Shown one piece after another: positions 1,815 through 53,858 of a DNA stretch of 55,842 nt (positions within the stretch are counted from its first letter, which is position 1; each line of letters begins with the position of its first letter). A model generated the notes under the pieces. That model did not search any database, was not told the origin of the DNA, and was given only the letters and a program-made list of their open reading frames with translations. Origin of the DNA: a virus (taxonomy: Duplodnaviria; Heunggongvirae; Uroviricota; Caudoviricetes); the IMG/VR virus record IMGVR_UViG_2923350032_000003, one strand, 5' to 3'. Position numbers and translations under genes: made by a program.

Positions 1815-4800
1815 TATGCAAGCCTCACAATATAGTTAAATGCGATGTTTTTGACGGTGTTTTCCGCGTTACCAGCAGCGTTAACGGTGATGGTGTGTCC
1901 ATGTGAACCAATCGCAACGGAGTGCGTATGAGCACCAATACCGACAGTATGCGCGTGTGCACCTGCAGATGCTGCTGTGCCGGACAGTGAGTGGCTATGA
2001 TTACCATCTGTACTGGTATTAGCTAACCACCCCGTAGACATACCTACTGAGCCTTGTACACCCCAGGTATTTTGACCTGAGCTTGTATAACCATATTGAT
2101 AAGTATCTTTAAAAACACTGGGGTTAAATCGACGGCCATCTCTATGGCTGTGATTACCAGCTGCATTCGTGCTGCCACTTAAACTATGGGTATGCGCACC
2201 AGTGTTATTCGTGGATTTAGTGCCGTAATCAAACGACGATGTGGTTTTCGCCCCCAAATCCGTACTGGATGCGCTGGCGCTGTGGGTATGCGATTTAATG
2301 CCGTCCTGTTCCTGAGACAATACGGCCCGACCACTGGCAGGTTTGCCCTTAATCGTCCAGCCACGCATATCAGGGATCACGCCTGACGGATAAGCCGCTG
2401 CAAGTTTCGGGTATGCAGATTTGTCAAAAGCCTGCCCCTGCATCAGGGCATAACCAGACGGAACGGTATCTGATGGCCACGGGATTGGTGCGCCGACTGG
2501 GTAGCTTTCTGGTGGAAGATTTTTCGAGGTATAAACTTCTGCCCAGTCTTCCTCAAAACCATAGCCATCTCTTGAGGAACGGTAGAACAGACCTCCATTT
2601 CTGTAATGTGCCTTCATCTGCAAGGTCCGGCAACTTCCGACTCCGGTATAGAAGTTAACCAGAATATAGCTGTCGCCAGAGCGGGTGACATTGTAAGCGC
2701 CTGATTCGGCATTCCATGGAACGCCCCCATCCGCATCGGCATACGTATCCGTTGCTCTTCTGGCAAAAGCAGCAACATGCGCAGCGGTTAAAGTGATATC
2801 AGTAGAACCATCAAACGAAACACCAGATATTTTTATTGCTGTCTGAAGTTTCGTAGCTGTATCAGAATTTCCCTTAATCCCCTTAGGAGAATTAAGTGGT
2901 GTATTGATCGTCACTTCACCTGTTGCGTTATTTACTGCAAATGGTCGAAGACCGTTCCAGCCACCGTACTGGTCGCCTTTATCAGTCATGAGCAAGTAAG
3001 TATTTGCTCCATCATTTCGCCATATGACACCGTAATCACCTGCAATCATCCTTAACGCGTTCTGACTACGGACAATAACTTCATCATTAGCGTAAATCTT
3101 ATTCCCGCTAATGTCTGACTTACTCAAAACAGGATACGAACTATAAAATCCATTACCTTGTTTAAAATCTAAAATTAAATTTACCGCAACTGATTCAGAA
3201 TAAGGATCAGTTGCGCCAAATTTATAAGTCGTTTCAGCAACAATATAATCAGAAGCAGGTGCAGTAACGGAGAGACCTTCTTCTAAAAAGACCTCTACGG
3301 GAAATGCCCCACCTTCTATATAGAATACGCTGTCTACGGTATCGCCTTTATTACTCATCAGAATGGAATGAATAGCGCGTTCCGATGTTGAATAAGCCCA
3401 GAACATACCACAGGCATAGCTACCCCGGTCCGTCCAGCCGCCTGCGCAAACAAAACCATTAAACTCACAATTATTCATTCTGTGATTAGCTGAGCGACTT
3501 GGCGTTGAAATGACAACGCGGGATGCCCGATGGCTGTCATTCCTTTTTATCACTAACGGATAATATTTACCTTCCTGGACACCCGCCGGGGCATTTACCA
3601 CAACGTATCGCATCCCCTTTTTCTGATCCACTTCACCTTTGCTGTAAACATTAATGTTACTCAGGAAGCGGTCCTTGTCGGGAATATCAGCACCGTTCTG
3701 GTCTTTCTGCAGACGTTTCTCTGCATTGTCATAGGCTGCTTTTACTGCCTTTGGCGTTGCCGCCAGCGTTTCAGACGTGCTGTTGGTCGCACTGCTGAGC
3801 TGTACTACCCCCTTTTTCGTCGTGCTCGCATCCTCAAGCGCCACGGCGGATGCAATATCCTCTGCACGTTTTGCCGCTGTCTCAGCGCGCGTTGCTGCGG
3901 ATTCTGCCGTACTTTTGCTCTGTGCTGCCGCTGCCGCACTGCCAGCAGCCTCTGTCGCCTTCGTGGATGCTGTCGTGGCGCTGCCCTTCGCTGCGGATGC
4001 TTGTCTTGTCGCCTCATCTTTTGAAGCAGACGCCGATGATGCCGATGACGCCGCCGAACTGGCGGACGATGCGGCAGCCGTTTTTGAGGATTCTGCGCTG
4101 GTTTCCGACGCTTTCGCGTTCGTCTCGGATGTCTTCGCTGCGGAAGCAGACCTCGCTGCTGCACTGGCCTGTTCAGTGGCTTCGCCAGCCTTCGTTGTGG
4201 CTGTTGAAGCGGACGATGCGGCGCTTTCTGCCGATTTTCCGGCGGCGCTAGCACTGGCTGAGGCCTGCCCGGCACTTGTTGACGCGGCACTGGCAGATGA
4301 TGCAGCCGCTGTTTTTGAGCCTGCCGCAGCTGAGGCACTCTGTCCCGCTGCCGTTTCAGAAGACCTGGCGTTCGTCTCGGACGTTTTTGCCGCCTTCGCA
4401 GAATTTGCTGCCGCCGTTGCCGAGGAAGCGGCACTACTGGCGCTTGATGATGCGTTCGTTTCTGATGATTTCGCTGCCTCTTTTGAGGCCGCCGCATCCC
4501 GGGCTGAGGTGGCAGCTTCTGACGCCTTCGTGGTCGCGGCGGATGCAGAAGTGGCTGCAGATTTTTGTGACGCTGCCGCATTCGTTTCTGACGTTTTCGC
4601 GGCACTGGCACTGGTAGCTGCCGCGCTTTTTGAGGACTCTGCAGCAGCAGCACTTTTCGATGCTTCAGTGGCCTTTGTTGATGCCGTTCCTGCGCTGGAA
4701 GACGCTGACTGAGCCGACGAAGCGGCCTGTCCGGCTGACGTGCTGGCTGCGCGTGCTGAGCCTGCAGCATCAGTCGCATGGGTTGCCGCCTCACGGGCTG

Positions 4801-5215
4801 ATGTGCCGGCATCGCTGGCTGACTTCTTCGCGGCTGCCGTGTTCTGTGCCACCGCGGACGCGTTACGCGCCACCTCTTCCACCATCAGTTCAAAACGGCG
4901 CAGTGCCTCAGGACGGGCATCATCCTCCGTCATGGCACCGAGAAAATCATTCAGCGTACCGGGTCGGGAATCTTCATACACGGTGATGGTCCCGGCATGT
5001 GACGGCGGGAATCCCTCCACCAACAGAATAACGCTGTACTGCCCGTACTCAACGTCCATGCTGTAACGCCCGGCTTCATCCGGATTTTCTGAGGCCAGCG
5101 TGTTCACCACCACCGTGGTGCTGTTACGTTTTGCTTTCAGCTGGATTGTGCAGTTCTGTACCGGTTTACCTGCACCGTCTTTCAGTACACCTGAAATCTT
5201 TACTGCCATATTCAC
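1814..5215 (-). CDS. stfR: Side tail fiber protein (lambda Stf-like)
   Basis: 1133 aa; conserved Stf N-terminus, long Ala/Ser/Thr-rich repeat region, His-rich HxH C-terminal tip. Confidence 0.8.
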
Positions 5216-33806: not shown

Positions 33807-33956
33807 TTCTTGCTCCTCAATCCATTAAAATCTCAGCAATAGTAGTTGTTACGTCCGCCACTGGCTCAGAGCTGACTATCCGCTAAATTTAGCTCAGTGC
33901 CGTAGCTGTGTCAGAACAAACCTAAGCCGAAACCGTTTATTACAAAACAATAAATA

Positions 33957-34444: not shown

Positions 34445-34975
34445 ACAGCGAATCAGATCAAATAAAACGCACATTTGTTAACATTTACACAAAGTCTGCG
34501 TGGGATATTCTGAAAGAATATCCATAATGTGGAGAGAATCTATTGAAGTGCATGGTGCCGGGTGCCTCCCGGTGAACAAAATGTTCGTGATACCTGTCGG
34601 CGACAGAAAAGGTTAATGGTATCACCCCACCGCACAGGGGGATTCACCATGCAGGAGTTTTCTTAGCAAACTCACTGCGCGCCCGGCAACTCCCAACCAC
34701 ATAAAATGCGGAGTTTGTGGTATTTATGCATATAACTCGCAGGAATTATCTTAAAAAACTGATGTCGATCCGGATTAAAAAGAAGCAGGTCATCATCAGA
34801 TGACTGGAAAAAAGGAAAACAAAAAATACTCATCATACAGTTTTGATTGCAGGGATGAGCCTGCTATGCACAATATGCAGAATATAAGCAAGATAAAAAT
34901 ATGCAGGCATATTATTTCGGATTTTGTTATTAACACAACCTTTTTAATAATCATTTGGCATACAATAAACCAGCC

Positions 34976-37626: not shown

Positions 37627-37663
37627 CCTCAAAAACACGCATTTATAATGCATGTTTTTGAGG
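37627..37663 (+). promoter_or_regulatory. 37-bp palindromic operator (NsrR-box-like) overlapping the promoter of the yeaR-like gene
   Basis: Perfect 11-bp arms cctcaaaaaca / tgtttttgagg flanking cgcatttataatgca; TTGACA at 37617-37622; GGAGG ribosome binding site at 37662-37666. Confidence 0.5.
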
Positions 37664-37671
37664 AGGTGGTT

Positions 37672-38010
37672 ATGACACACAAGAGAATTCCTAAAGATTG
37701 GGTAATCAAACGCTCAACTCCGTTCTTCACAAAAGAGAACGTACCTTCAGCGTTATTAACACATCATAATACAGCAGCAGGTGTTTTTGGGCAGTTGTGC
37801 GTAATGGAAGGCACTGTAACATATTATGGTTTTACTGATGAGAATGCTACTGAACCGGAGATAAAAGTAGTCATTAATGCTGGCGCTTTTGCAACAAGCC
37901 CACCACAATACTGGCACCGTGTTGAACTAAGCGATGATGCTCAGTTTAATATTAACTTTTGGGTCGCTCCAGACTTCTCGGGCGAAAAAGTCTATAGCAC
38001 CAAAAAATAG
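37672..38010 (+). CDS. DUF1971 protein, YeaR-like
   Basis: 112 aa from MTHKRIPKDW...; recalled similarity to E. coli YeaR; strong ribosome binding site. Confidence 0.65.
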   Translation: MTHKRIPKDWVIKRSTPFFTKENVPSALLTHHNTAAGVFGQLCVMEGTVTYYGFTDENATEPEIKVVINAGAFATSPPQYWHRVELSDDAQFNINFWVAPDFSGEKVYSTKK

Positions 38011-38037
38011 ATGATCATATTAAAAATGCTTTAACAG

Positions 38038-38075
38038 TCAGACCCGGCAGGGCTATCCCCGACGGGTCTCATTTT
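38038..38075 (+). terminator. Intrinsic terminator after yeaR-like gene
   Basis: GACCCGGCAGGG...CCCCGACGGGTC stem followed by TCATTTTTGT. Confidence 0.5.
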
Positions 38076-38733
38076 TGTAAATATATTGGTTCTACATTGA
38101 CAGGAGACTTCAACCATAAGAAGTAATCTGAATACTTGAGCAATAAATTTACTTAAGATTAATGAGCGCACCTTGCCGGACAAAGATAAACCAAGGTAAC
38201 ACCTTTTTTCTAGCCAGTATGTAATCAATCAGAAAGCCGCTCCATAAGAACAACAGCAAGACAATAAATTGCCATTACAGCCGCAATAGCTAGCGCACAT
38301 TTGAGAACCAGCACGACAACCTCCTGTATTGGACGTACACCAGTTCTGATAAATATGAGGCTGTCTCATCATTGATTCAATATAACTATTGGGTATAGTT
38401 TCTGTGATTTTGTTCTGTAGAAATGGAACACAACAACCAGTCACCACCAGCACTTCTTTAAATACGCCAAGTCCGACGCAAGCTAACCTTCTAGTCCGCT
38501 TTGAGCGAGGAGCGGACCAAACCCGGCCAACTGACTCTTAAAGGGGCCGCAGGAATTTTTCGTCTGAACTTTCGAAGCTCCTCTCCCTGAAGACAGAAAA
38601 CTTCTGTGTGCTGTGGGAATATTGAATCTTTGCCTTAGATATAAATAATTTTATCCCGCCTGAAGTTTACATTATTTTATTTATCTGTTTTTCTAAATCA
38701 GACTGCACTCCTTACTTAAATCAGGAGCCAGTC

Positions 38734-39933
38734 ATGCCATTTGTTATTTATGTGTTTACTATCAGTGCCTTTGCGCTCGGACTCGCGGAATTTGTCCCCA
38801 TTGGGCTGACAGACGTTATGGCTCAGGGGTTGTGTGTGGGTGTGGAGCAGACCGGGGCAGCGGTTACAACCTATGCACTGGGGGCAACGTTCGCGGCACC
38901 CGTACTGTCTGCGCTGACAGCAAGCTGGAGCCGGAAAAATGTAATGCTTACAACTGCCGTTGTGTTTACTGCCGGTAGTCTGGCGGCCGCGTTTGCAGCC
39001 ACATTACCTCAGCTCCTGTTAGCGCGGTTCATTGCTGGTCTGGGACACGGCCTGTTTCTGGCTGCGGCATCCAGTACCGCAGCTCGTCTTGCTGGACCGG
39101 GTAAAGCAGGCAGAGCGGTGGCTGTGGTATTTGGTGGCTTTACTCTGGCGATGGCAATCGGCGTACCGCTGAGTACATGGTTGGGGGGGGTGGTCTCATG
39201 GCGTCCAGTTCTCGGCGCTATTGCCGCTTTTGGCGCGTTCGGATTCCTTGGACTGTTGTTCGGTATGAAAGATCCCGTACGCAGCGTGCCCGGTGAACAT
39301 AGTGACTCAGCAATGCAGAATATCGGCATGCTGTTTAACCGTAAGTTGCTGGCCGGCGCGCTGGTTACGGTGCTGGCGTATGCAGGCTCGTTTACGGCTT
39401 ACACCTTTATCGCACCTATTCTGACGCAGGTGACAGGGGTTACCGGAGCAACGGTGAGTCTGTTTATGCTGGTTTACGGTATTACAGCTGCGGTAGGTAA
39501 TATTCTTGGTGGGAAACTTACCGACAGCATGGGGGTTAATCGTGCCAATATACTCATCATTAGCGGCATTGTTGTTGTCGTGCTTGGTATGTGGCTGCTG
39601 TCATCCTCACCGGTGAGCATGGGCATTCTGGTTGCGCTGCTGGGTATGGTGACATTTGCCGCAGTGCCGGCACTGCAGGCCCGTCTGATTGGTGTCGCTG
39701 AGCAACATGCTCCTCATGCGCATGGTGTTGCTGCCGGCCTGAATATTGCGGGCTTCAACTCAGGTATAGCGCTGGGATCAGTACTGGGCAGCATTACTAT
39801 AAGCCACGCCGGTATCGTGTATACCGGTATCAGCGGTGCGATTGTTTCTCTGCTCGGCCTGCTGTTGCTGCTTGCACAAATCCGTCGCAGCCACAGTCGT
39901 AAATTTCAACAGGTTAAAATCGTAGGCCAGTAA
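38734..39933 (+). CDS. MFS transporter (12-TM efflux type)
   Basis: 399 aa, hydrophobic throughout with MFS-like loop motifs. Confidence 0.7.
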   Translation: MPFVIYVFTISAFALGLAEFVPIGLTDVMAQGLCVGVEQTGAAVTTYALGATFAAPVLSALTASWSRKNVMLTTAVVFTAGSLAAAFAATLPQLLLARFIAGLGHGLFLAAASSTAARLAGPGKAGRAVAVVFGGFTLAMAIGVPLSTWLGGVVSWRPVLGAIAAFGAFGFLGLLFGMKDPVRSVPGEHSDSAMQNIGMLFNRKLLAGALVTVLAYAGSFTAYTFIAPILTQVTGVTGATVSLFMLVYGITAAVGNILGGKLTDSMGVNRANILIISGIVVVVLGMWLLSSSPVSMGILVALLGMVTFAAVPALQARLIGVAEQHAPHAHGVAAGLNIAGFNSGIALGSVLGSITISHAGIVYTGISGAIVSLLGLLLLLAQIRRSHSRKFQQVKIVGQ

Positions 39934-39944
39934 AGGGAGGTTAT

Positions 39945-40637
39945 ATGCTTACCCGTGAAAATATGCTTAATGGCACATTTGTCAGGGTGCATGAAGCGCT
40001 GCTCCCGGCGAATATGCTCTGGGACGCTGAAAAAATACGCGCATCAATGAACTCTACTCTGGAGGAGCGCCCGACGGGTGCTCCTGTCTGGATATTTGCC
40101 TACGGGTCATTGATGTGGAATCCCGTGCTGGCGATTGAAGAAATGCAACGGGCCCGTCTGAAAGGATGGCAGCGCAGTTTCTGCATTCGTTTGATATCCG
40201 GACGAGCGACTCCTGATGTCCCCGGCAGGATGTTATCGCTCGACGAAGGTGGAATTACCGAAGGTATTGCGTTCAGACTGCCGGAATCGACTCTTATTAA
40301 TGAGCTGGAAATTGTCTGGACGCGCGAGATGATAACCGGTCTTTACCGTCCGGTCTGGGCAGACGTTTCGCTAGGAAACGGTGAGGAAATTCAGGCGCTG
40401 GCTTTCGTATCAGACAGACTGCATCCGCATTATGAACAGGACAATCTTACAGCGACCGTAGCGTTGAGCATCGCATCTGCCCGTGGAGACATTGGCACGA
40501 ATGCAGATTATGTATGGAAACTGCAGGCCACTCTGGGTGCGTTGGGAATACGGGATGATTACGTGAGTGAACTGGCCCTTGCTCTGCATGAGTCTCCCTG
40601 TAACGATAAACTTCATCAGCGAGGCGCTTCACTATGA
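39945..40637 (+). CDS. ChaC-like gamma-glutamylcyclotransferase
   Basis: 230 aa; WIFAYGSLMWNP motif and overall resemblance to E. coli ChaC. Confidence 0.7.
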   Translation: MLTRENMLNGTFVRVHEALLPANMLWDAEKIRASMNSTLEERPTGAPVWIFAYGSLMWNPVLAIEEMQRARLKGWQRSFCIRLISGRATPDVPGRMLSLDEGGITEGIAFRLPESTLINELEIVWTREMITGLYRPVWADVSLGNGEEIQALAFVSDRLHPHYEQDNLTATVALSIASARGDIGTNADYVWKLQATLGALGIRDDYVSELALALHESPCNDKLHQRGASL

Positions 40638-41515
40638 GCCATCTGAGCCATCTGCGAACGTTTCTTGAGGCCTATCGCTCTGGCTCCTTTTCAAAGGCGG
40701 CAGAACTACTGGGCATCACTCAGCCCGCGGCGTCACAGCATATCCAGTCTCTTGAGACTCTGGTTGGTAAGCGTCTGTTTATCAGGCAGGCCAGAGGCGT
40801 GACGGCAACCGAAGCTGCGGATGAGCTTGCCCGCTCAGTTTCACCCTTCATTGATGGTCTGGAAGAAAAGCTGTCCTCTTTCCGGTCAGGCTCTGTACGC
40901 GGGGGAACAATTAATCTGGCAGGACCGCCAGATTTTATTCATTCCCGGCTTGGGACAGTAATGGCTCCACTAATGAAGGAGGGGTATCGCCTACGCTTTC
41001 ATACCGGCAATAAGCAACGTATTTATTCCCTTTTGCATGACGGGAGCGCCGATCTCGCTGTTACCGCATCTATGCCTGATGACCGTCTGTACGGCTATGC
41101 ACATCTACTGACTGAACGCATGCTCCTTGTTCATGCTCCCGCCATGTCAGAGATCATCGGATCAGAACCTGGTGCTGAAACGCTTGCCTCATTACCGCTG
41201 ATTGCTTATGACGAAGAGTTGCCACTGATTAGAGCGCTCTGGGCCTCCATGTTTCAGAGAGCCCCTGAGATGCAGGCTACATTCACCATTCCGGATTTAC
41301 GTATTATCCGCGACTTGGTCTGTGACGGCCACGGGTGGACAGTGCTGCCGGATTATCACTGTGACAATGACCTGAAAAGTGGTCGCCTGATTTCAGTGAC
41401 ACCTGCAGACCTCGCTCCGACTAATCATCTTTATCTGGTCTGGAACAAAAGGACGGCTAATAACAGCCGAACCGCCTATGTTCGGGATTACATTCTTAAA
41501 ACGTTTCCGCGTTGA
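40634..41515 (+). CDS. LysR-family transcriptional regulator
   Basis: 293 aa; N-terminal HTH (FSKAAELLGITQPAASQHIQSLE); start overlaps chaC-like stop. Confidence 0.8.
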   Translation: MSHLSHLRTFLEAYRSGSFSKAAELLGITQPAASQHIQSLETLVGKRLFIRQARGVTATEAADELARSVSPFIDGLEEKLSSFRSGSVRGGTINLAGPPDFIHSRLGTVMAPLMKEGYRLRFHTGNKQRIYSLLHDGSADLAVTASMPDDRLYGYAHLLTERMLLVHAPAMSEIIGSEPGAETLASLPLIAYDEELPLIRALWASMFQRAPEMQATFTIPDLRIIRDLVCDGHGWTVLPDYHCDNDLKSGRLISVTPADLAPTNHLYLVWNKRTANNSRTAYVRDYILKTFPR

Positions 41516-41560
41516 TGTTTGAAACGGATGATTGGAGATGCGTATCATAAGTTACGTATG

Positions 41561-41600
41561 TCCGCTTCTGGCACAAAGCAGACGCCCACTCTCACGCGAA
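41561..41600. repeat. Copy A of an about 36-bp direct repeat (core TGGCACAAAGC-GAC-CCAC)
   Basis: Matches 45225-45260 at about 28 of 36 positions. Confidence 0.4.
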
Positions 41601-41645
41601 TGCTTTGCCCTTGACTTGCCAACAACCGTATCGCTTGCTCCGCAA

Positions 41646-42938
41646 CTATGGTTTTTTATTAGAATCTTCGCCACTAAATAAATTATAATAAATTGATTTT
41701 ATTAGATATCTATCAGAATCTATATGGTCAGCACGAGTAGCATGCTCTAATGTTTCAAATGCTAGGGTTTGTGCGGCTTCAGCAAAAATTCCAGGCCAAC
41801 CCTTACTCAGCATCGACAGTCCTTTAAGTACCCTTATCTGAATTTCCCTCATACTGGCACCATCGCGCGCAACAGGTGAGAAAAAGTCTTCAAGTAGATC
41901 GTTATTCTGAAGTGGTGCAACATGTACAGAAGGATATTTCACTTCTATTTCATCAGATTTATTCTGCGCGTAAGCGGAAAGTATACGTACACCTCTGCCA
42001 ATGACATCAATGGCGGTTCCAGGATCGTTCACTGCGGGGGAAAGGGCTCGGCAGGCTATTTCGGCCATGACGCTAAGACAAAATCGGGGGTCCTGAGCAA
42101 ATGAACGTACATCCGAGACAATAATCGTCTCAAGTAAATCGGTGCTGATTGATGACTCCTGGCCCTGACTCAGGTACAAAACTGGCGTGGACGGATGTAT
42201 GAAACTGCCCGGCTGCGCCACGAGGTATACATGACGGGGATCATTGGTCAGCAGCTTGCTGAGTTTCACCATATCAACATATTCAACATAGCCAATCTTT
42301 TTCGGATAAACTGCAACCGTTCCTTTCGGCTGTTCATTGTTCTCAAGCCATGGATATCCGCCGAGACAGGGATTTCTTGCTCTCGCAATAAATGTTTCGA
42401 TGGCCGCCTGTTCTACTTTTGCCGTTGTCTCACCAACCCTCCCCAGAGAGGTCAAATGCTGTATCCAGCGAAGCAATGTGATGAGGATTAAGGCAATGAC
42501 AACCAGTGTTACAATGAATAAAATGACTCTCCCCCTTTCTCCATAAGCTCCCATATTGAGGGCAATAATCCCTACCAGACTGAAGAGAAAAGAACCGATG
42601 AAGGTGGCCAGTACATTTTGTGTGGTGACGTCTTCAACAACTAAACGAGTAGCTCTGGGAGTCACATTAGTAGTGGCTGAACCGTAGGCTGTGACCATGA
42701 TGCTCAGCGAAAATGTGGTCACTGCCAGCATACTCGATGCCAGTATGTTCAGAATGTTATCGACTGCTTCCGCACCAACCTTCACGGAAACCGACTCAGG
42801 TATCATTGATTTAAAAAGAATTGATAAAAGGGCCGTTATTATTGCGACAATTGCGAATAACGTTGCCCTGAACCATAGTTTTTTAAATGTCTGCTTCAGC
42901 ATCCATTTCCAGCGTGAAATCATTCTGCATTCCCTCAT
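41646..42938 (-). CDS. DUF2254-like membrane protein
   Basis: 430 aa; N-terminal multi-TM region plus C-terminal soluble domain. Confidence 0.5.
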   Translation of the reverse strand: MRECRMISRWKWMLKQTFKKLWFRATLFAIVAIITALLSILFKSMIPESVSVKVGAEAVDNILNILASSMLAVTTFSLSIMVTAYGSATTNVTPRATRLVVEDVTTQNVLATFIGSFLFSLVGIIALNMGAYGERGRVILFIVTLVVIALILITLLRWIQHLTSLGRVGETTAKVEQAAIETFIARARNPCLGGYPWLENNEQPKGTVAVYPKKIGYVEYVDMVKLSKLLTNDPRHVYLVAQPGSFIHPSTPVLYLSQGQESSISTDLLETIIVSDVRSFAQDPRFCLSVMAEIACRALSPAVNDPGTAIDVIGRGVRILSAYAQNKSDEIEVKYPSVHVAPLQNNDLLEDFFSPVARDGASMREIQIRVLKGLSMLSKGWPGIFAEAAQTLAFETLEHATRADHIDSDRYLIKSIYYNLFSGEDSNKKP

Positions 42939-42986
42939 ATTGCAGCCGGGATAAATAAATGCCGCCTCTGTGGCGGCATGTTGCTG

Positions 42987-44990
42987 TTAACGAACCAGAT
43001 GCAGGAAGTGCAGGTGTTTTTCGTACTGGTCCAGTATGTCATTAATCAGCTGTTCCTGATTCCAGCCCATTACATCATAATTTTGGCCGCCCTCTTTGAG
43101 ATAGACTTCAGCGCGATAATATCGATGTTGTTCACTCTGCTGCTCATCATTATCCAGCGCAGCGAGCGCGAAGGTCGGTGAGTTATACCCGCGAAGCCTC
43201 ACTTCATATATATAATTCAGCTCGTTGCCCAAATCGACTTCAAGGCGAATACGATCCTCGGCGGCGTCACTGATGTGGCTTATCGTTCCCTGCTTGTTAA
43301 GTTCCTCCTGAACCAGCGTCATGGCGGGTTGGATAATGTCGTCCATAAAACGTTTCACAAGAGAGCGCTTCGGCAAATACGCGATATTGCGTAACCTTCT
43401 CTGCCAGGGAATTGGGTTACGTGCAGCCGTAGGAGCAATAGTCGCCATGCTAAGGCTTTCACGCTTGGTCAAATCCCGACGCAGGGCTTTTAACAGTCCG
43501 TATATGGATATTAATAAGATAACTGAGAAGGGCAATGCACTCGCTATCGTTACGGTTTGCAACGCACTCAGCCCCCCTGCGATCAGCAGGGCAATAGCAA
43601 CAACGCCCATGAGCGATGCCCAGAAAATTCGCTGCCAGACGGGCGTGTTTGCCACCCCACCTGATGCCAGAGTATCCACAACCATTGCCCCCGAATCAGC
43701 AGACGTTACAAAGAAGACGATGACCATCGCCATTGCAATGAATGACAGCACGGAAGAGAACGGGAAATGCTCCAGGAAATTAAACAGGGCAAGCGCAACA
43801 TCCTGCTGAACGGTATTGGCGAGGTCAGTGGCGCCCTGGTTCATGATGAGATAGATGGCGCTGTTTCCAAACACCGTCATCCACATGAGCGTAAAGCCGG
43901 CGGGAACAAACAACACGCCAGTCACGAACTCACGAATTGTCCTGCCGCGGGAAACGCGTGCAATGAACATACCTACAAACGGCGACCATGAAAGCCACCA
44001 TCCCCAGTATAATAATGTCCAGCCCCCCAGCCAGTTGCTCGACTTGGGTTCATACGCGTAAAGGTTGAACGTTTTACTCACCAGTTCCGACAGATAACCA
44101 CCCGTATTTTCCACAAATGACTTCAGCAGAAGCACAGTGGGACCCAGGCACAAGACCAGCGCCAGGAGCAACACCGCCAGGCCCAGATTAAGCTCAGACA
44201 GGATGCGTATTCCCTTGTCCAGGCCGGACACCACCGAAATCGTCGCTAACCCCGTGATGACCACGATCAAAATGACCTGTACCGTTTCATTGATGGGCAC
44301 GCCGAAAAGATGGTTCAAACCGGCATTCACCTGCAATACACCGTAACCCAGCGATGTTGCAACGCCAAAGACAGTGCCTATCACGGCGAAGATATCAACC
44401 GCGTGGCCTATAGGCCCGTAAATGCGATCGCCGATAATGGGATAGAGCGCAGAACGCAGCGTTAAAGGCAGACCGTGACGGTAACTGAAAAAGGCCAGAA
44501 TCAGCGCCACGATGGCATAAATTGCCCATGCGTGCAGACCCCAGTGGAAGAACGTCAGGCGCATGGCTTCCTTCGCTGCCGCAACGGTCTCTGGAGTGCC
44601 GACAGGTGGCGAAAGATAATGCATCACAGGTTCGGCAACGCCAAAGAACATCAGGCCGATCCCCATCCCTGCCGAAAAAAGCATCGCGAACCAGGAGTGG
44701 TAGCTGAAATCAGGCTGCGCATGGTCTGGGCCCAGCTTTATATCACCGTAACGTGAGAGTCCAAGGAACGTGACGCTCAGTAAAATCAGGGCCACAGCAA
44801 GTATGTAGAACCAGCTGGCATTCGTGAAGATTTGTTGCTGAAGTAGTTTAAAATTTTTGTCGGCGACATCCGGGAATACGGCGGCAAAGGCGACAAGAAG
44901 GAAAATTAGCAAAGCAGATGTAAAGAATACCGCTTTGTTAATCTGGCTTGTAGACTTCTTTGGGGTTGTATCATTTTCACTCATAATCAT
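42987..44990 (-). CDS. BCCT-family transporter (BetT-like)
   Basis: 667 aa; BCCT-type TM topology and long cytoplasmic C-terminal tail as in recalled BetT. Confidence 0.75.
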   Translation of the reverse strand: MIMSENDTTPKKSTSQINKAVFFTSALLIFLLVAFAAVFPDVADKNFKLLQQQIFTNASWFYILAVALILLSVTFLGLSRYGDIKLGPDHAQPDFSYHSWFAMLFSAGMGIGLMFFGVAEPVMHYLSPPVGTPETVAAAKEAMRLTFFHWGLHAWAIYAIVALILAFFSYRHGLPLTLRSALYPIIGDRIYGPIGHAVDIFAVIGTVFGVATSLGYGVLQVNAGLNHLFGVPINETVQVILIVVITGLATISVVSGLDKGIRILSELNLGLAVLLLALVLCLGPTVLLLKSFVENTGGYLSELVSKTFNLYAYEPKSSNWLGGWTLLYWGWWLSWSPFVGMFIARVSRGRTIREFVTGVLFVPAGFTLMWMTVFGNSAIYLIMNQGATDLANTVQQDVALALFNFLEHFPFSSVLSFIAMAMVIVFFVTSADSGAMVVDTLASGGVANTPVWQRIFWASLMGVVAIALLIAGGLSALQTVTIASALPFSVILLISIYGLLKALRRDLTKRESLSMATIAPTAARNPIPWQRRLRNIAYLPKRSLVKRFMDDIIQPAMTLVQEELNKQGTISHISDAAEDRIRLEVDLGNELNYIYEVRLRGYNSPTFALAALDNDEQQSEQHRYYRAEVYLKEGGQNYDVMGWNQEQLINDILDQYEKHLHFLHLVR

Positions 44991-45224
44991 TTATTCCATT
45001 AATTAAATCCGCACTGGATAGAAGGTACTACCTCTCACAGAGTAGCAAAGTTCAACTGGCTATGCGGGGTTAATCGGAATGCATGGTGGAATGAGTGCCG
45101 ATACAAATCATCCTATATTCTAAGGAGTTTTAAGTTACTCAGCCTGCCAATTACTGGGGCATTTAATTTGTATGATCTGTATCAAAGCTGGGATATAAGT
45201 TAAGTGAAGTATATTAGGCACGAA

Positions 45225-45260
45225 TTACCAGCGTCTGCTCTTGGCACAAAGCGGACAACC
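45225..45260. repeat. Copy B of the about 36-bp direct repeat
   Basis: Matches 41561-41600; lies about 240 bp upstream of the BCCT gene start. Confidence 0.4.
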
Positions 45261-45324
45261 ACGCTAGCTCTACCCTGTGCCACAAAATGTCAATTTGCAT
45301 CTGAACTAATGCACTTTAATCTCG

Positions 45325-45747
45325 TCACTTCAATAAATACCGAACATCCCCCTGATAAAACGACAATATGCGCTGCATAACTTCGCTCTTCCGGCACTCG
45401 CGACAGATTATGTTTAGGCGACTGTCGTAGCGACGTATTTCTCCGTCAGGTAATGACCAGATAAGGTCCGGATCAACCACAACCGGTTTCTTCAGCTTTG
45501 CCCTCGATAATTTTTTGCGGGCATTTTGCCAGTCTTTACGAGCCTGTTCAGACGGGAACAACCCGTAGCCAGAATTGTATACATCGCCACTGGCAACCAG
45601 CTCTCTGGCCAGAACGCTCATCAGATATCTTGTTGCCCCAGTTTTAGCTTCCAGTTGTCGTAACGTCTCGCGCCCACTCTGGCGTACGAGTTCAAGAACC
45701 TGCCCTTTAATTTTTTCCCGCTCTTCTTGTGTAAAAACTTTTGCCAC
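45325..45747 (-). CDS. Hypothetical protein in the replication module (possible winged-HTH)
   Basis: 140 aa, follows the ydaU-like gene where K-12 Rac has DnaC-like ydaV; no Walker motif. Confidence 0.35.
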   Translation of the reverse strand: MAKVFTQEEREKIKGQVLELVRQSGRETLRQLEAKTGATRYLMSVLARELVASGDVYNSGYGLFPSEQARKDWQNARKKLSRAKLKKPVVVDPDLIWSLPDGEIRRYDSRLNIICRECRKSEVMQRILSFYQGDVRYLLK

Positions 45748-45787
45748 AAGCCCTCCTGAAAATTACCTCATGACCAGAAATTAACAC

Positions 45788-46864
45788 TTACCCCCTGAAG
45801 CCCGGCGGAATTTCGTTATCCGGTTCAGAAATATGATTCACACAACGCTGGTTGTTCGTGCCGCTTACCGGGAGCAACCAGGGGTTCTCAAAATTCCGGT
45901 CCGGTCCAAAAAACGTCGTCGCTCGCTGAACAAATTCCGTTCCCGTTTTCCCGGTAGCCGCCAAGTATCTTGCGTAACGCCTCACGCCATCCAGCATGGC
46001 CTCTGGTGGCACCCCCTCGCGTAATCTGGCCTTCCAGGCACTGAAAGCGGATTTCTTCGGGTTTGCCCCAGCACGCAACGGGTACTCCCGCCAGACCTGT
46101 TCGAACACATCCGGATAATCCACTCGTCCCACAGACTGCCCGGTGTTTTCCGGGACTACCCGATCGGCTTCCCGCTGAATGGCGGAATCGGCTTCAGGCT
46201 GCTGCAGTTGGTGTGATTGCTCCGCCCTTGCGGTCATCACCTGCTGCACAGCGCCCGAATCGGCTTTCAGCGCATACGCTGAATCGGCTTCCGGTGTCGT
46301 GCCTGCTGGCTGACCAAGATTGACGGTCTGAACATCCCCTGCCTGGTTCGTGGCGTTTTTTACGCCATGGACCATAGTGTTTTGATCTTCTTGATCTGTA
46401 TCTTTATCTGTATCTTTATCTGTCGTGACTCGTCGTGACATGTGCGTGACATTTCGTGACGCGCCGTGACAATCGCCATTTTGTTCCCGCTTTCTTTCCC
46501 TCTCTCGCTGCGCCCTCTTGCGCTCTGCAGGAGATTTTGCGATTTGCGAAATATTGCCGTTGTCCTCTTTAAGCACCTGGCGTTTTTCCCATCCAGTGAT
46601 TAAATCACCATCAAGTACCCGCCCCTGCATCGTCTGCAAAATTGAATCAATTACCTCTTCTGTCACGTCGAGCGCACTTGCCAAATCTTCTGTCGTGACA
46701 TCAATGTGACCTCGCGTGACATTTCGTGACGCGCTCACCAGGAGGTGGATATACACTGCCATCACTGTTGCAATTGGCTGTCCTGACACCCTGGCAATTG
46801 TTCGCCACTTAGGGTCATTTGGCATGTCATGCCATAATCTGAGCCAGGCGTTAGCCATACTCAC
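45788..46864 (-). CDS. YdaU-like replication initiation protein
   Basis: 358 aa; internal acidic repeat TDKDTDKDTD; contains two iteron-like arrays in its coding sequence. Confidence 0.5.
   Translation of the reverse strand: MSMANAWLRLWHDMPNDPKWRTIARVSGQPIATVMAVYIHLLVSASRNVTRGHIDVTTEDLASALDVTEEVIDSILQTMQGRVLDGDLITGWEKRQVLKEDNGNISQIAKSPAERKRAQRERERKREQNGDCHGASRNVTHMSRRVTTDKDTDKDTDQEDQNTMVHGVKNATNQAGDVQTVNLGQPAGTTPEADSAYALKADSGAVQQVMTARAEQSHQLQQPEADSAIQREADRVVPENTGQSVGRVDYPDVFEQVWREYPLRAGANPKKSAFSAWKARLREGVPPEAMLDGVRRYARYLAATGKTGTEFVQRATTFFGPDRNFENPWLLPVSGTNNQRCVNHISEPDNEIPPGFRG
46391..46470. repeat. Iteron-like array 1 inside the ydaU-like gene (tandem atctgtatcttt repeats, then five CGTGAC at about 10-bp spacing)
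   Basis: tgtcgtgac / tcgtcgtgaca / tgtgcgtgac / atttcgtgac / gcgccgtgac. Confidence 0.5.
46691..46730. repeat. Iteron-like array 2 inside the ydaU-like gene (four GTGAC at 10-bp spacing)
   Basis: tgtcgtgaca / tcaatgtgac / ctcgcgtgac / atttcgtgac. Confidence 0.5.
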
Positions 46865-50464: not shown

Positions 50465-53056
50465 ATGAGCACAAAACCACTCTTCCTGTTACGGAAAGCG
50501 AAAAAATCATCCGGTGAACCTGACGTCGTCCTGTGGGCAAGCAACGATTTTGAATCGACCTGTGCCACTCTGGACTACCTGATCGTTAAGTCAGGTAAAA
50601 AACTGAGCAGCTATTTTAAAGCTGTTGCCACGAATTTTCCTGTCGTTAATGACCTGCCCGCTGAAGGTGAGATCGATTTTACCTGGAGTGAACGCTATCA
50701 ACTCAGCAAAGACTCCATGACATGGGAACTAAAACCGGGAGCAGCACCAGACAACGCTCACTATCAAGGCAATACCAACGTCAACGGCGAAGACATGACT
50801 GAGATTGAGGAGAATATGCTACTCCCAATTTCTGGCCAGGAACTGCCCATTCGTTGGCTTGCTCAACACGGCAGCGAAAAACCGGTAACGCACGTTTCAC
50901 GCGACGGACTCCAGGCATTACACATTGCTCGGGCTGAAGAACTACCGGCTGTTACTGCCCTGGCTGTTTCCCACAAAACCAGCCTGCTCGACCCGCTGGA
51001 AATTCGCGAACTCCACAAACTGGTTCGTGACACTGACAAAGTTTTCCCTAATCCTGGTAATTCAAACCTGGGACTGATAACTGCTTTTTTCGAAGCATAC
51101 CTGAACGCTGACTACACCGATCGAGGACTGCTGACAAAAGAGTGGATGAAGGGTAATCGTGTTTCACACATCACTCGCACGGCTTCCGGTGCTAATGCTG
51201 GCGGCGGAAACCTCACCGATCGCGGCGAAGGTTTCGTACACGATCTGACGTCACTGGCGCGCGACGTAGCCACTGGCGTACTGGCCCGTTCAATGGATCT
51301 GGACATCTATAACCTTCATCCGGCACACGCTAAACGCATTGAGGAAATTATCGCTGAAAATAAACCGCCCTTTTCTGTTTTCCGCGACAAATTCATCACC
51401 ATGCCTGGCGGGCTGGATTATTCCCGCGCCATCGTGGTTGCGTCCGTAAAAGAAGCACCAATTGGGATCGAGGTCATCCCCGCGCACGTCACTGAATATC
51501 TGAACAAAGTACTGACTGAAACCGATCATGCCAACCCTGATCCGGAAATCGTGGATATTGCCTGCGGTCGCTCCTCTGCCCCGATGCCGCAGCGAGTAAC
51601 AGAAGAAGGAAAACAGGATGATGAAGAAAAACCGCAACCATCTGGAACAACGGCAGTTGAACAGGGAGAGGCTGAAACAATGGAACCGGACGCAACTGAA
51701 CATCATCAGGACACGCAGCCGCTGGATGCTCAGTCACAGGTAAATTCTGTTGATGCGAAATATCAGGAACTGCGGGCAGAACTCCATGAAGCCCGGAAAA
51801 ACATTCCATCAAAAAATCCTGTCGATGACGATAAATTGCTTGCTGCATCACGTGGTGAATTTGTTGACGGAATTAGCGATCCGAAATGGGTAAAGGGGAT
51901 CCAGACTCGCGATTGTGTGTACCAGAACCAGCCAGAAACGGAAAAAACCAGCCCAGATATGAATCAACCTGAGCCAGTAGTGCAACAGGAACCGGAAATA
52001 GCCTGCAATGCCTGCGGCCAGACTGGCGGGGATAACTGCCCTGACTGTGGTGCGGTGATGGGCGACGCAACATACCAGGAAACATTCGCTGAAGAGAGTC
52101 AGGTTGAAGCTAAGGAAAATGATCCGGAGGAAATGGAAGGCGCTGAACATCCGCACAATGAGAATGCTGGCAGCGATCCGCATCGCGATTGCAGTGATGA
52201 AACTGGCGAAGTCGCAGATCCCGTAATCGTAGAAGACATAGAGCCAGGTATTTATTACGGAATTTCGAATGAGAATTACCACGCGGGTCCCGGTATCAGT
52301 AAGTCTCAGCTCGATGACATTGCTGATACTCCGGCACTATATTTGTGGCGTAAAAATGCCCCCGTGGACACCACAAAGACAAAAACGCTCGATTTAGGAA
52401 CTGCTTTCCACTGCCGGGTACTTGAACCGGAAGAATTCAGTAACCGCTTTATCGTAGCACCTGAATTTAACCGCCGTACAAACGCCGGAAAAGAAGAAGA
52501 GAAAGCGTTTCTGATGGAATGCGCAAGCACAGGAAAAACGGTTATCACTGCGGAAGAAGGCCGGAAAATTGAACTCATGTATCAAAGCGTTATGGCTTTG
52601 CCGCTGGGGCAATGGCTTGTTGAAAGCGCCGGACACGCTGAATCATCAATTTACTGGGAAGATCCTGAAACAGGAATTTTGTGTCGGTGCCGTCCGGACA
52701 AAATTATCCCTGAATTTCACTGGATCATGGACGTGAAAACTACGGCGGATATTCAACGATTCAAAACCGCTTATTACGACTACCGCTATCACGTTCAGGA
52801 TGCATTCTACAGTGACGGTTATGAAGCACAGTTTGGAGTGCAGCCAACTTTCGTTTTTCTGGTTGCCAGCACAACTATTGAATGCGGACGTTATCCGGTT
52901 GAAATTTTCATGATGGGCGAAGAAGCAAAACTGGCAGGTCAACAGGAATATCACCGCAATCTGCGAACCCTGTCTGACTGCCTGAATACCGATGAATGGC
53001 CAGCTATTAAGACATTATCACTGCCCCGCTGGGCTAAGGAATATGCAAATGACTAA
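50465..53056 (+). CDS. recE: Exodeoxyribonuclease VIII (RecE)
   Basis: 863 aa; Rac recE-like throughout, including C-terminal nuclease domain. Confidence 0.9.
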
Positions 53057-53858
53057 GCAACCACCAATCGCAAAAGCCGATCTGCAAAAAACTCAGGGAA
53101 ACCGTGCACCAGCAGCAGTTAAAAATAGCGACGTGATTAGTTTTATTAACCAGCCATCAATGAAAGAGCAACTGGCAGCAGCTCTTCCACGCCATATGAC
53201 GGCTGAACGTATGATCCGTATCGCCACCACAGAAATTCGTAAAGTTCCGGCGTTAGGAAACTGTGACACTATGAGTTTTGTCAGTGCGATCGTACAGTGT
53301 TCACAGCTCGGACTTGAGCCAGGTAGCGCCCTCGGTCATGCATATTTACTGCCTTTTGGTAATAAAAACGAAAAGAGCGGTAAAAAGAACGTTCAGCTAA
53401 TCATTGGCTATCGCGGCATGATTGATCTGGCTCGCCGTTCTGGTCAAATCGCCAGCCTGTCAGCCCGTGTTGTCCGTGAAGGTGACGAGTTTAGCTTCGA
53501 ATTTGGCCTTGATGAAAAGTTAATACACCGCCCGGGAGAAAACGAAGATGCCCCGGTTACCCACGTCTATGCTGTCGCAAGACTGAAAGACGGAGGTACT
53601 CAGTTTGAAGTTATGACGCGCAAACAGATTGAGCTGGTGCGCAGCCTGAGTAAAGCTGGTAATAACGGGCCGTGGGTAACTCACTGGGAAGAAATGGCAA
53701 AGAAAACGGCTATTCGTCGCCTGTTCAAATATCTGCCCGTATCAATTGAGATCCAGCGTGCAGTATCAATGGATGAAAAGGAACCACTGACAATCGATCC
53801 TGCAGATTCCTCTGTATTAACCGGGGAATACAGTGTAATCGATAATTCAGAGGAATAA
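53049..53858 (+). CDS. recT: Recombinase RecT (single-strand annealing protein)
   Basis: 269 aa from [13 protein letters not shown]...; start overlaps recE end. Confidence 0.9.

Follow-up and report, generated by a model that had tools for sequence, protein, structure and literature searches.

In Acinetobacter, the pdif sites used by XerC/XerD are short (11-6-11) and have one well conserved and one variable arm. Inverted pdif sites flank modules of one to a few genes, form arrays on mobile DNA and place the same module in varied contexts, with no recombinase gene beside the modules. All of these properties recur at the sites described here. Integron cassettes and their attC sites are similar in other respects: promoter-poor or autonomous cargo units stand in arrays with imperfectly palindromic elements of ~65 nt between them, the elements have conserved ends and a variable middle, hybrid sites occur at cassette junctions, and the cargo is very diverse and includes defence genes. 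Like REP/BIME/REPIN sequences and their RAYTs, the sites described here are short intergenic palindromes, often in inverted doublets, that lie at gene 3' ends and are abundant in some genomes (Pantoea plasmids, Xanthobacteraceae). Lambdoid morons and "linker" mosaicism offer a precedent for independent cargo inserted between the replication and nin/Q regions and for short conserved sequences at mosaic joints. No published description of the site came up in full-text searches, whose subjects were its sequence, hotspots or boundary sequences of lambdoid phages, and pdif-like modules in Enterobacterales.

The window, by which we mean the whole 55,842-nt stretch of DNA that was analysed, is a Rac-like E. 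coli prophage. The original prediction was that imperfect direct repeats flank its DUF2254 and BCCT genes, and two copies in the same orientation were indeed found to bracket exactly this gene pair (Table 1). The extent of the repeats had to be corrected. Copy 1 was off by one base, copy 2 lies about 8 bases further right (45233-45265 rather than 45225-45260), and the identity, given as about 28 of 36 positions, was measured as 26 of 33 without gaps (79%). This 33-nt repeat is the longest direct repeat within 41000-46000. When these 5 kb were shuffled 60 times with dinucleotides preserved, the top-scoring 33-nt direct repeat had 22.4 matching positions on average and never more than 24, versus 26 in the real sequence. 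Each copy is also palindromic, with arms of 7-9 nt around a 6-nt core, and consequently the pair matches as an inverted repeat as well. The two copies, here called sites B and C, conform to the 24-nt palindrome GTCYGCTNN-TGGCAC-AAAGCRGAC.

The core TGGCACAAAGCRGAC, allowing up to 2 mismatches, occurs four times in the window versus 0.32 expected. The search for more copies that had been proposed yielded a third site (A) and a degenerate fourth (D), and the motif proved to be a dispersed family on mobile DNA. Neither these two sites nor the palindromy of each copy had been noticed in the original prediction. Sites A, B and C have exactly the same arm spacing, are all intergenic and stand at module borders, splitting the cargo island that extends from DUF1971 to DUF977/LygF into MFS-GGCT-LysR and DUF2254-BCCT. 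Site D is probably a degenerate member whose place in the family is uncertain; it is kept as part of the backbone in two other loci (L003 and L007).

Table 1. Sites, cargo modules and neighbouring genes in the window
Feature	Position	Strand	Description
Site D	33853-33876	.	GTCCGCCAC-TGGCTC-AGAGCTGAC; 2 arm mismatches; between two TolA-like ORFs
DUF1971 gene	37648-38010	+	Backbone gene, site A side
Site A	38494-38517	.	GTCCGCTTT-GAGCGA-GGAGCGGAC; type-2 core, inverted relative to B and C; left border of cargo island, between DUF1971 and MFS
Cargo module 1	38734-41515	+	MFS transporter 38734-39933, gamma-glutamylcyclotransferase (GGCT) 39945-40637, LysR-family regulator 40634-41515; bounded by A and B
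Site B (predicted copy 1)	41560-41592	.	Palindrome GTCCGCTTC-TGGCAC-AAAGCAGAC at 41560-41583; C-like similarity extends to 41592; between converging LysR and DUF2254 genes
Cargo module 2	41646-44990	-	BetT-like BCCT transporter 42987-44990, DUF2254 membrane protein 41646-42938; bounded by B and C
Site C (predicted copy 2)	45233-45265	.	Palindrome GTCTGCTCT-TGGCAC-AAAGCGGAC at 45233-45256, then backbone flank aaccacgctagctct; 69 nt downstream of DUF977/LygF stop
DUF977 gene	45325-45747	-	LygF or Ren-like in phage records; last replication-module gene; backbone gene adjoining site C
RecE	50465-53056		Encoded in the window
RecT	52992-53858		Encoded in the window

Across the family, the consensus is AT-GTCCGCTTT-GWGCSA-RRAGCGGAC-RTT, 24-28 bp long, with one arm well conserved and the other variable. 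The cores fall into two discrete types, GTGCCA/TGGCAC (type 1) and GAGCGA/TCGCTC (type 2), and their conservation is partly by construction, since the site collections were seeded with sequence patterns. The arms showed no covariation: positions 4 and 21 were C:G 125 times, T.G 26 times, C.A 26 times and T:A 3 times, equal to the expectation under independence, and the number of Watson-Crick pairs across four arm pairs and two flank pairs was also near that expectation. Folding of B and C on either strand gave z-scores of -0.4 to -1.3, no better than shuffles, and no Rfam family matched at the sites. A structured RNA or single-stranded-DNA hairpin was rejected on these three counts.

Because the sites are palindromic and intergenic, they might be read as operators of the adjacent LysR-type or another local regulator, or as 3' hairpins with a role in ending the flanking transcripts or making them more stable. 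The positions of A and C, ~220-260 bp upstream of the MFS and BCCT start codons, and of B, just downstream of two converging operons, would suit such roles. We regard this as very improbable. Many phages and plasmids that lack this LysR gene have the sites around other, unrelated cargo, among them mEp460_ev081, E. coli CH425 and LR-21-1, a Klebsiella IncF plasmid and a Pantoea megaplasmid, which argues against the earlier proposal of binding sites for a shared regulator such as the adjacent LysR protein. The orientation of the sites relative to the upstream gene is not consistent. Sites A, B and C were not among the 15 terminator-like predictions in 38000-45800, and their flanks are without T-runs. 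Two further resemblances were rejected: TGGCAC recalls the -24 box of a sigma-54 promoter, but by eye the GC is missing at the GG-N10-GC spacing, and TGCTCTT of site C recalls nut boxA and is missing from the other sites.

Comparison with other phages showed that the sites border a common cargo slot. The content of the slot varies; in Rac- and mEp460-like lambdoid phages it has a type-2 site (A) at one end and a type-1 site in inverted orientation (C) at the other, with the replication module (DUF977/LygF) on one side and hok or DUF1971 on the other. Other E. coli prophages, IMG/VR contigs and isolated phages (e.g. mEp460) together carry at least 10 unrelated cargos inside the same pair of outer sites, and homology breaks within the sites. 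The cargo in the other E. coli prophages consists of SIR2, amidohydrolase and TetR genes, of DUF5677, or of hypothetical genes, and there the arm on the backbone side is conserved together with the core, and the arm on the cargo side is variable. The isolated phage mEp460_ev081 has site A at 3067 and site C at 5008, with a cargo of 1.35 kb. Around site A, other prophages retain the left flank caagctaaccttcta together with the left arm and core, and homology stops past the right arm.

At site C, the right arm and flank are conserved beside DUF977 in thousands of E. coli genomes and isolated phages, and homology on the DUF977 side begins at the site in more than 4000 genomes. A scan of IMG/VR, which specified only 14 bases and gave ~55 full palindromes among ~128 matches, found at least 12 unrelated cargo-side (left) flanks joined to an identical DUF977-side flank. 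All-against-all clustering of neighbouring ORFs identified DUF977 as the only gene family recurring beside the sites (26 loci, median distance 69 nt).

The DUF2254-BCCT module itself, identical or nearly so, was seen with four different left neighbours, each of which brings its own left arm. Identity on the DUF2254 side begins at the TGGCAC core; rightwards from there, the window and four other loci (L072, L096, L039 and L002) are identical, and a chromosomal copy is diverged (94% identical). At the B junction there are four unrelated kinds of left flank and, as a fifth, that of the chromosomal copy; they end in GTCCGCTTC, GTCCGCTAC, GTCCGCTCA, GTCTGCTTT and GTTTGCTTT, respectively. The segment from B to C was also found, 99.8% identical and with the same two bounding sites, in a different, non-Rac context in strain GSH8M-2. 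The chromosomal copy carries a B-like site and lies in IS-rich DNA beside the fec genes in many E. coli; its right end is always cut off by IS600 and is hence uninformative. The original prediction had offered recombination scars as one explanation of the repeats, which comes near to the evidence: within the sites, homology is lost to the module as well as to the phage backbone, and the module is joined there to varied neighbours.

We consider it probable that B and C are junctions produced by recombination at a dispersed family of duplex sites, a judgement that takes in the observed junctions and the proposed events together and is kept apart from the choice of enzyme. DUF2254-BCCT would have entered the slot via a crossover inside a site, between the resident phage site and the site at the DUF2254 end of the module. 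B and C would be the hybrid products of such a crossover, two sites facing the same way, by the same logic as attL and attR, with module 1 (MFS-GGCT-LysR) filling the rest of the slot from A to B. The arms of B and C do form an attL/attR-like pattern, which is suggestive only, because across the family the T and A variants of the arms are independent of each other. A synthetic query for an "empty" LysR-site-DUF977 junction had 0 matches in 5426 complete E. coli genomes; excision or insertion of the module was therefore not caught in the act. Should the sites have kept their activity, B x C recombination would cut out or swap the betaine/choline-type transporter module.

As for the enzyme, our guess, which may or may not prove right, is a recombinase that recognises duplex half-sites. 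It is favoured by arms that are conserved as sequence, without compensatory changes. The recombinase would probably be supplied in trans, since no recombinase gene travels with the sites; among ~250 loci, none was consistently linked to them. One locus (L121) has a UmuD-like gene and two tyrosine recombinases between two sites, an arrangement seen nowhere else among the ~250 loci and rejected as a linked recombinase. These two tyrosine recombinases are not recurrent and score far below integron-integrase cutoffs.

RecET or RecA could instead have recombined short homologies at the same sites, which we hold to be possible, if somewhat doubtful. The sites would then have another primary role, such as protein binding or insulation, and RecET, Red or RecA would swap modules between co-resident phages and plasmids via 24-28 bp of shared sequence, with no dedicated recombinase; we entertain this account, too, only tentatively. 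RecE and RecT promote recombination with a few tens of bp of homology, and both are encoded in the window. Lambdoid phages are classic mosaics, and this account is equally compatible with hybrid sites whose breakpoints fall inside the repeat; ordinary homologous recombination between short dispersed repeats would also give such sites. However, homology alone accounts neither for the existence of the sites nor for the two discrete core types with their fixed polarity or the fixed spacing of doublets. Nor does it explain the sites as cargo borders on plasmids and megaplasmids that lack RecET, and the perfectly shared stretch is often just 15-20 nt, which is inefficient for homologous exchange.

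The same site is present on ~2000 enterobacterial plasmids, is dense on Pantoea megaplasmids and also occurs in soil Alphaproteobacteria. Inward-facing sites bracket cargo (queH, dgt and others) on a Klebsiella IncF plasmid, and ~16 sites, mostly in doublets, were found in 49 kb of a Pantoea megaplasmid. All 19 unique doublets are divergent and consist of one type-1 and one type-2 unit at a spacing of 39, 40 or 42 nt. On plasmids and in phage arrays, type-1 + type-2 doublets separate cargo units. A motif common throughout the genome and unrelated to the module had been named as evidence that would count against the original prediction. In E. coli the motif did not prove to be that common: among genomes with any near-perfect copy, the median was 1 per genome and the maximum 8. 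It is not private to this module either.

The picture in other hosts raises the question of a selfish element. Xanthobacteraceae, Pseudolabrys and Hyphomicrobiales MAGs have many copies per genome, often directly after stop codons. The high copy number on Pantoea plasmids and alphaproteobacterial chromosomes is more suggestive of a self-spreading REP/MITE-type element than of a target for a recombinase. Either the 24-nt unit or the ~65-nt doublet could be a small non-autonomous mobile element of intergenic DNA, spread by a RAYT-type HUH or other transposase, in which case the position at module borders would merely reflect non-coding DNA and module exchange would be a by-product. This explanation accommodates the site density and inverted doublets on the Pantoea megaplasmid, the copies after stop codons, and a doublet architecture that resembles REPINs and BIMEs, but on balance we think it unlikely. 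Unlike REPs, the sites have no 5' GTAG head, their flank consensus being AT/RTT, and their arms lack the compensatory changes that recognition of a single-stranded-DNA hairpin would predict. In E. coli they number only ~1 per carrying genome and are confined to mobile DNA, and the same 24-mer extends across bacterial classes. Moreover, several unrelated cargos are joined at exactly the same two points, with no target duplication. The 250 loci examined contain no RAYT homologue, and plasmid tblastn returned none for Pantoea. Around a RAYT locus of K. pneumoniae (L258) stand classical GTAGCCCGGATAAGGCG-type REPs rather than the site motif; the REPs of E. coli and Klebsiella are other sequences.

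Recombination at duplex sites, as we favour it for B and C, might be part of something broader. We raise as a speculative possibility a novel cassette-exchange system common to Enterobacterales phages and plasmids, in which two heterospecific inverted sites (cores GTGCCA and GAGCGA) would bracket defence and metabolic cargo and a trans-acting candidate recombinase would swap it from replicon to replicon; B and C would be its attL- and attR-like products. Such a system could, equally speculatively, be described as natural "recombinase-mediated cassette exchange", analogous to pdif modules and integrons, with a new site and a new enzyme. If recombination does occur at the sites, their sequence is a searchable signature with which the slots that trade anti-phage systems, toxins and transporters in lambdoid prophages and IncF-type plasmids can be located, and with which cassettes can be delimited when prophages are annotated. 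Such recombination would also account for the presence of one module in unrelated replicons without IS elements or integrons, and would point to a DNA-binding or recombination activity across Enterobacterales and possibly Alphaproteobacteria.

The sequence logo of the family gives AT+9 / 6 / 9+AT with a conserved and a variable arm, which corresponds to the 11-nt arm / 6-8 nt centre / 11-nt arm layout of dif/pdif. By eye, the arms ATGTCCGCTTT and AAAGCGGACAT have no meaningful similarity to what we take to be the XerC/XerD arms of dif, cer and pdif (XerD arm TTATGTTAAAT). A geometry of the serine-recombinase type (res site I/hix-like, 12-2-12) is also compatible, as TGTCCGCTTTGW-GC-..., with a central GC that is nearly invariant in cores partly fixed by the search patterns. 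No cognate resolvase or invertase was identified for the sites, and we know of no similarity between them and the half-sites of Pin/Hin-type hix sites or the Rac attachment site. The shufflon sfx sites presumably have the core GTGCCA(A) in common with the sites here and have unrelated arms, an analogy only.

Where neighbouring pdif modules have one site in common between them, two sites 15-18 nt apart stand as a doublet between neighbouring modules here, and the hosts are Enterobacterales phages and plasmids. Compared with integron cassettes, the sites are without the RYYYAAC/GTTRRRY cores of attC and without an adjacent IntI or attI; cargo orientation is mixed, and the unit is a compact 9-6-9 palindrome without covariation for folding. 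Finally, where the lambdoid linker model has a promoter/terminator pair or gene-end homology at the joint, the joint here is one specific palindrome family that plasmids also carry.

We found that the direct repeats placed by the original prediction around the DUF2254-BCCT gene pair are real, with copy 1 lying 1 base and copy 2 about 8 bases from the predicted coordinates. Their length and identity had been put slightly too high, the repeats being 33 nt long with 26/33 matches in direct orientation. None of 60 dinucleotide shuffles of the 5 kb around the repeats reached this match (best shuffle, 24/33), and the common core of the repeats, allowing up to two mismatches, was ~12-fold over-represented in the window. 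The two copies contain sites B and C, each of which is a palindrome with a 6-nt core between arms of 7-9 nt, so that B and C can be matched in inverted orientation too. Of the 15 occurrences of the heptamer GTCYGCT in the window, 6 form three inverted pairs, all at an identical 17-nt offset, at sites A, B and C. All four palindromic sites (A to D) are intergenic. Site D, in the stretch that separates the late-gene regulators from the lysis genes, is itself kept in other Rac-like prophages.

Coordinates of the sites and associated features
Feature	Sequence	Position	Core	Remark
Repeat copy 1	window	41560-41592
Repeat copy 2	window	45233-45265
Site A	window	38494-38517	GAGCGA	inverted GTCYGCT pair
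Site B	window	41560-41583	TGGCAC	inverted GTCYGCT pair
Site C	window	45233-45256	TGGCAC	inverted GTCYGCT pair
Site D	window	33853-33876		degenerate, GTCCGCCACTGGCTCAGAGCTGAC; between two TolA-like ORFs
Possible decayed type-1 unit and spacer	window	38455-38493		...AAGTCCGAC, 16 nt upstream of site A
Hairpin	window	42959-42979		ATGCCGCCTCTGTGGCGGCAT, perfect 8-bp stem
STnc100 sRNA	window	34496-34682 (-)		Rfam, 86.6 bits, E = 8e-18
Recombinase pair between two sites	L121	2775-6702
Extended palindrome	L154	2980-3060, 3617-3640
Conserved non-coding segment	L253	1439-1605		~145 nt
Site-rich region of pASB05p1	L255	100000-149000

The window matched at 100% identity a Rac-like prophage, present in full length in E. 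coli 13KWH46, with tail genes on the left and recE, recT, xis and intR at the right end. Its ~9-kb cargo island is flanked by nin-like genes (DUF1133, DUF1364 and DUF1367) on one side and by a replication module (YdaS/YdaT, replisome organiser and DUF977) on the other. Sites A, B and C partition the island into DUF1971, A, genes for an MFS transporter, a gamma-glutamylcyclotransferase and a LysR regulator, B, genes for DUF2254 and a BetT-like BCCT transporter, C, and DUF977. The prophage also contains a strong match to the STnc100 sRNA. The stop of BCCT and the start of DUF2254 are separated by 48 nt, within which the hairpin lies; a T-rich tail follows it on the gene strand.

A survey of 5426 complete E. 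coli genomes with a 12-kb query showed that homology breakpoints fall at the sites. Window 41558-45256, spanning B to C exactly, recurred in GSH8M-2 with 99.8% identity but in other surroundings, adjoining an ABC-three-component system. The match of strain 1506 stopped where site A ends (38516), and those of several prophages began where site C does (45233 or 45234). The A-to-C cargo was an 810-nt ORF in LR-21-1, genes for SIR2, NTP pyrophosphatase, amidohydrolase and TetR in CH425, and DUF5677 in ET358; these unrelated cargos share their bounding sites, A and C. In all three, the backbone-side arm and core were kept and the cargo-side arm was different, similarity stopping there. The DUF977-side flank started at the site in more than 4000 E. 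coli genomes, and site C was also found in the isolated phages Tritos, Evi, 204576 and mEp460_ev081, the last with the order A, 1.35-kb cargo, C. The sites were absent from Rac-SA53 and from one IteAS-carrying prophage, indicating that they belong to one backbone variant and are not universal. Neither an empty site nor an excision product was found in the 5426 genomes. By RefSeq annotation, E. coli strains differ widely in what they carry in the slot that separates DUF977 from DUF1367/hok, the cargo including IteA/IteS, SIR2, a YobI-like NTPase, a RelA/SpoT-domain protein, DUF5677, KilA-N, HNH and GIY-YIG nucleases and methyltransferases, a diversity that marks the slot out as a hotspot for defence genes and cargo in Rac-like prophages.

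We lined up the B junction across contexts. From TGGCAC rightwards (TGGCACAAAGCAGACgcccactctcac... into DUF2254), the window and loci L072, L096, L039 and L002 were identical. The left flanks were mutually unrelated, except for a near-exact match between L072 and the window, and each terminated in a left arm of its own (GTCCGCTTC, GTCCGCTAC, GTCCGCTCA or GTCTGCTTT); that of a diverged chromosomal copy (94% identity) terminated in GTTTGCTTT. This places the joint at B between left arm and core, and each partner would have supplied one half-site. Across the whole of site C, L002 agreed with the window, diverging from it directly beyond. Such a pattern would be expected of a crossover between a module-borne and a resident site that left two hybrids, but it would fit equally well a homologous exchange between short dispersed repeats, and exchange over short homology driven by RecET or RecA is nearly as likely as the recombinase favoured below. 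Since the T variant and the A variant of the arms were independent of each other among 190 unique sites, the particular mismatches of B and C (C.A and T.G) are only suggestive. Many E. coli carry a chromosomal DUF2254-BCCT pair, 94% identical, in IS-rich DNA adjoining the fec genes. In three such loci (L004, L249 and L250) DUF2254 has a B-like site, GTTTGCTTTTGGCACAAAGCATAC, on its downstream side and IS600 cuts the BCCT-side end; in one of the three, DUF2254 is also truncated by IS911.

The sites are widely dispersed. Because the collections were seeded with sequence patterns and comprise listed matches only, there is a bias in how conserved the cores look and in the shares of the different taxa. 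Among the IMG/VR matches listed for the pattern GCTNNTGGCACAAAGC, which has only 14 specified bases, ~55 of ~128 held a complete palindrome, and at least 12 unrelated cargo-side flanks were joined to the same DUF977-side flank. An arms-only scan of IMG/VR loci revealed a second core type (GAGCGA/TCGCTC, type 2, beside GTGCCA/TGGCAC, type 1) and arrays of up to 6 sites, with cargo including dCMP deaminase, a TIR-domain protein and GNAT. BLAST with two 24-mers detected near-perfect copies in 2594 of the 5426 E. coli genomes (median 1, maximum 8 per genome having any), all listed matches being intergenic, and in 2042 plasmids (Klebsiella 1110, Enterobacter 356, Pantoea 151, others). A Klebsiella IncF plasmid carried three cargo units, each between inward-facing sites: queH, a hypothetical gene with dgt, and two hypothetical genes. 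The conserved non-coding segment of L253, directly upstream of a type-1 site, occurs on most of 2527 matching Enterobacterales plasmids, mainly of Klebsiella; its homology generally stops at or just before that site, and Rfam gave no credible match to it.

Adjacent sites were almost always divergent, and each doublet comprised one unit per core type, start-to-start 39, 40 or 42 nt, with a spacer fixed in length and variable in sequence. Upstream of site A, the type-1-like unit and a 16-nt spacer, gcaagctaaccttcta, similar to doublet spacers of other loci (aagctaactgag...), suggest that site A may be the remaining half of an old doublet. The Pantoea agglomerans megaplasmid pASB05p1 carried ~16 sites within 49 kb, intergenic and mostly in doublets (one unit of type 2 and one of type 1, 40-42 nt apart), a REP-like density that differs from the roughly single copy of an E. 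coli genome. In a scan of one genome per species, the identical 24-mer occurred many times per genome in MAGs of soil Alphaproteobacteria (Pseudolabrys, Xanthobacteraceae and Hyphomicrobiales), often directly after stop codons and in tandem pairs ~50 nt apart; one and the same 24-mer is present in different bacterial classes. There, the palindrome extends to ATGTCCGCTTTGTGCCAATAGCGGACAT, high-copy and intergenic (L131-L248), one L154 copy directly following the stop codon of a gene for an ABC substrate-binding protein. Given how many copies are present in Pantoea and Alphaproteobacteria, a REP- or MITE-like selfish element is a serious third option. The sites are not classical E. coli/Klebsiella REPs, since the Klebsiella RAYT has ordinary REPs around it and no RAYT was present in any fetched locus.

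Other identities were rejected. The sites lack a T-run and received no call in a terminator scan, and as structured RNAs they gave folding z-scores of -0.4 to -1.3 and no Rfam family match. The proposal that they are LysR operators is not supported, since the same sites are present where the LysR gene is absent. A linked recombinase was discarded because the sole tyrosine recombinase pair between two sites, on IMG/VR contig L121, was unique to that contig and absent from every other fetched locus; DUF977 was the only recurrent close neighbour. The L121 recombinases (one of 335 aa, Xer-like and below curated cutoffs, the other of 707 aa) accompany a UmuD/HumD-like gene, with adjoining cassettes of dCMP deaminase, an ORF without known function and an ars operon.

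These results show that B and C are members of a dispersed family of palindromic sites on mobile DNA, that such sites coincide with the joints of cargo modules, and that DUF2254-BCCT is bounded by two same-orientation copies and lies between such sites in several contexts. We infer that the pair was put into the slot by a crossover within a site. Covariation was absent at all six arm or flank pairs, which rejects hairpins selected for pairing and points to duplex half-sites probably read by a protein. Our favoured guess is a putative recombinase, supplied in trans and reading half-sites, because the geometry is 11-6-11, one arm is conserved and the other varies, the cores fall into two discrete types with a fixed polarity, doublets keep a fixed spacing, and the arms do not covary. 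The known systems with which the sites were compared were dif, hix, sfx and res, through their consensus sequences.
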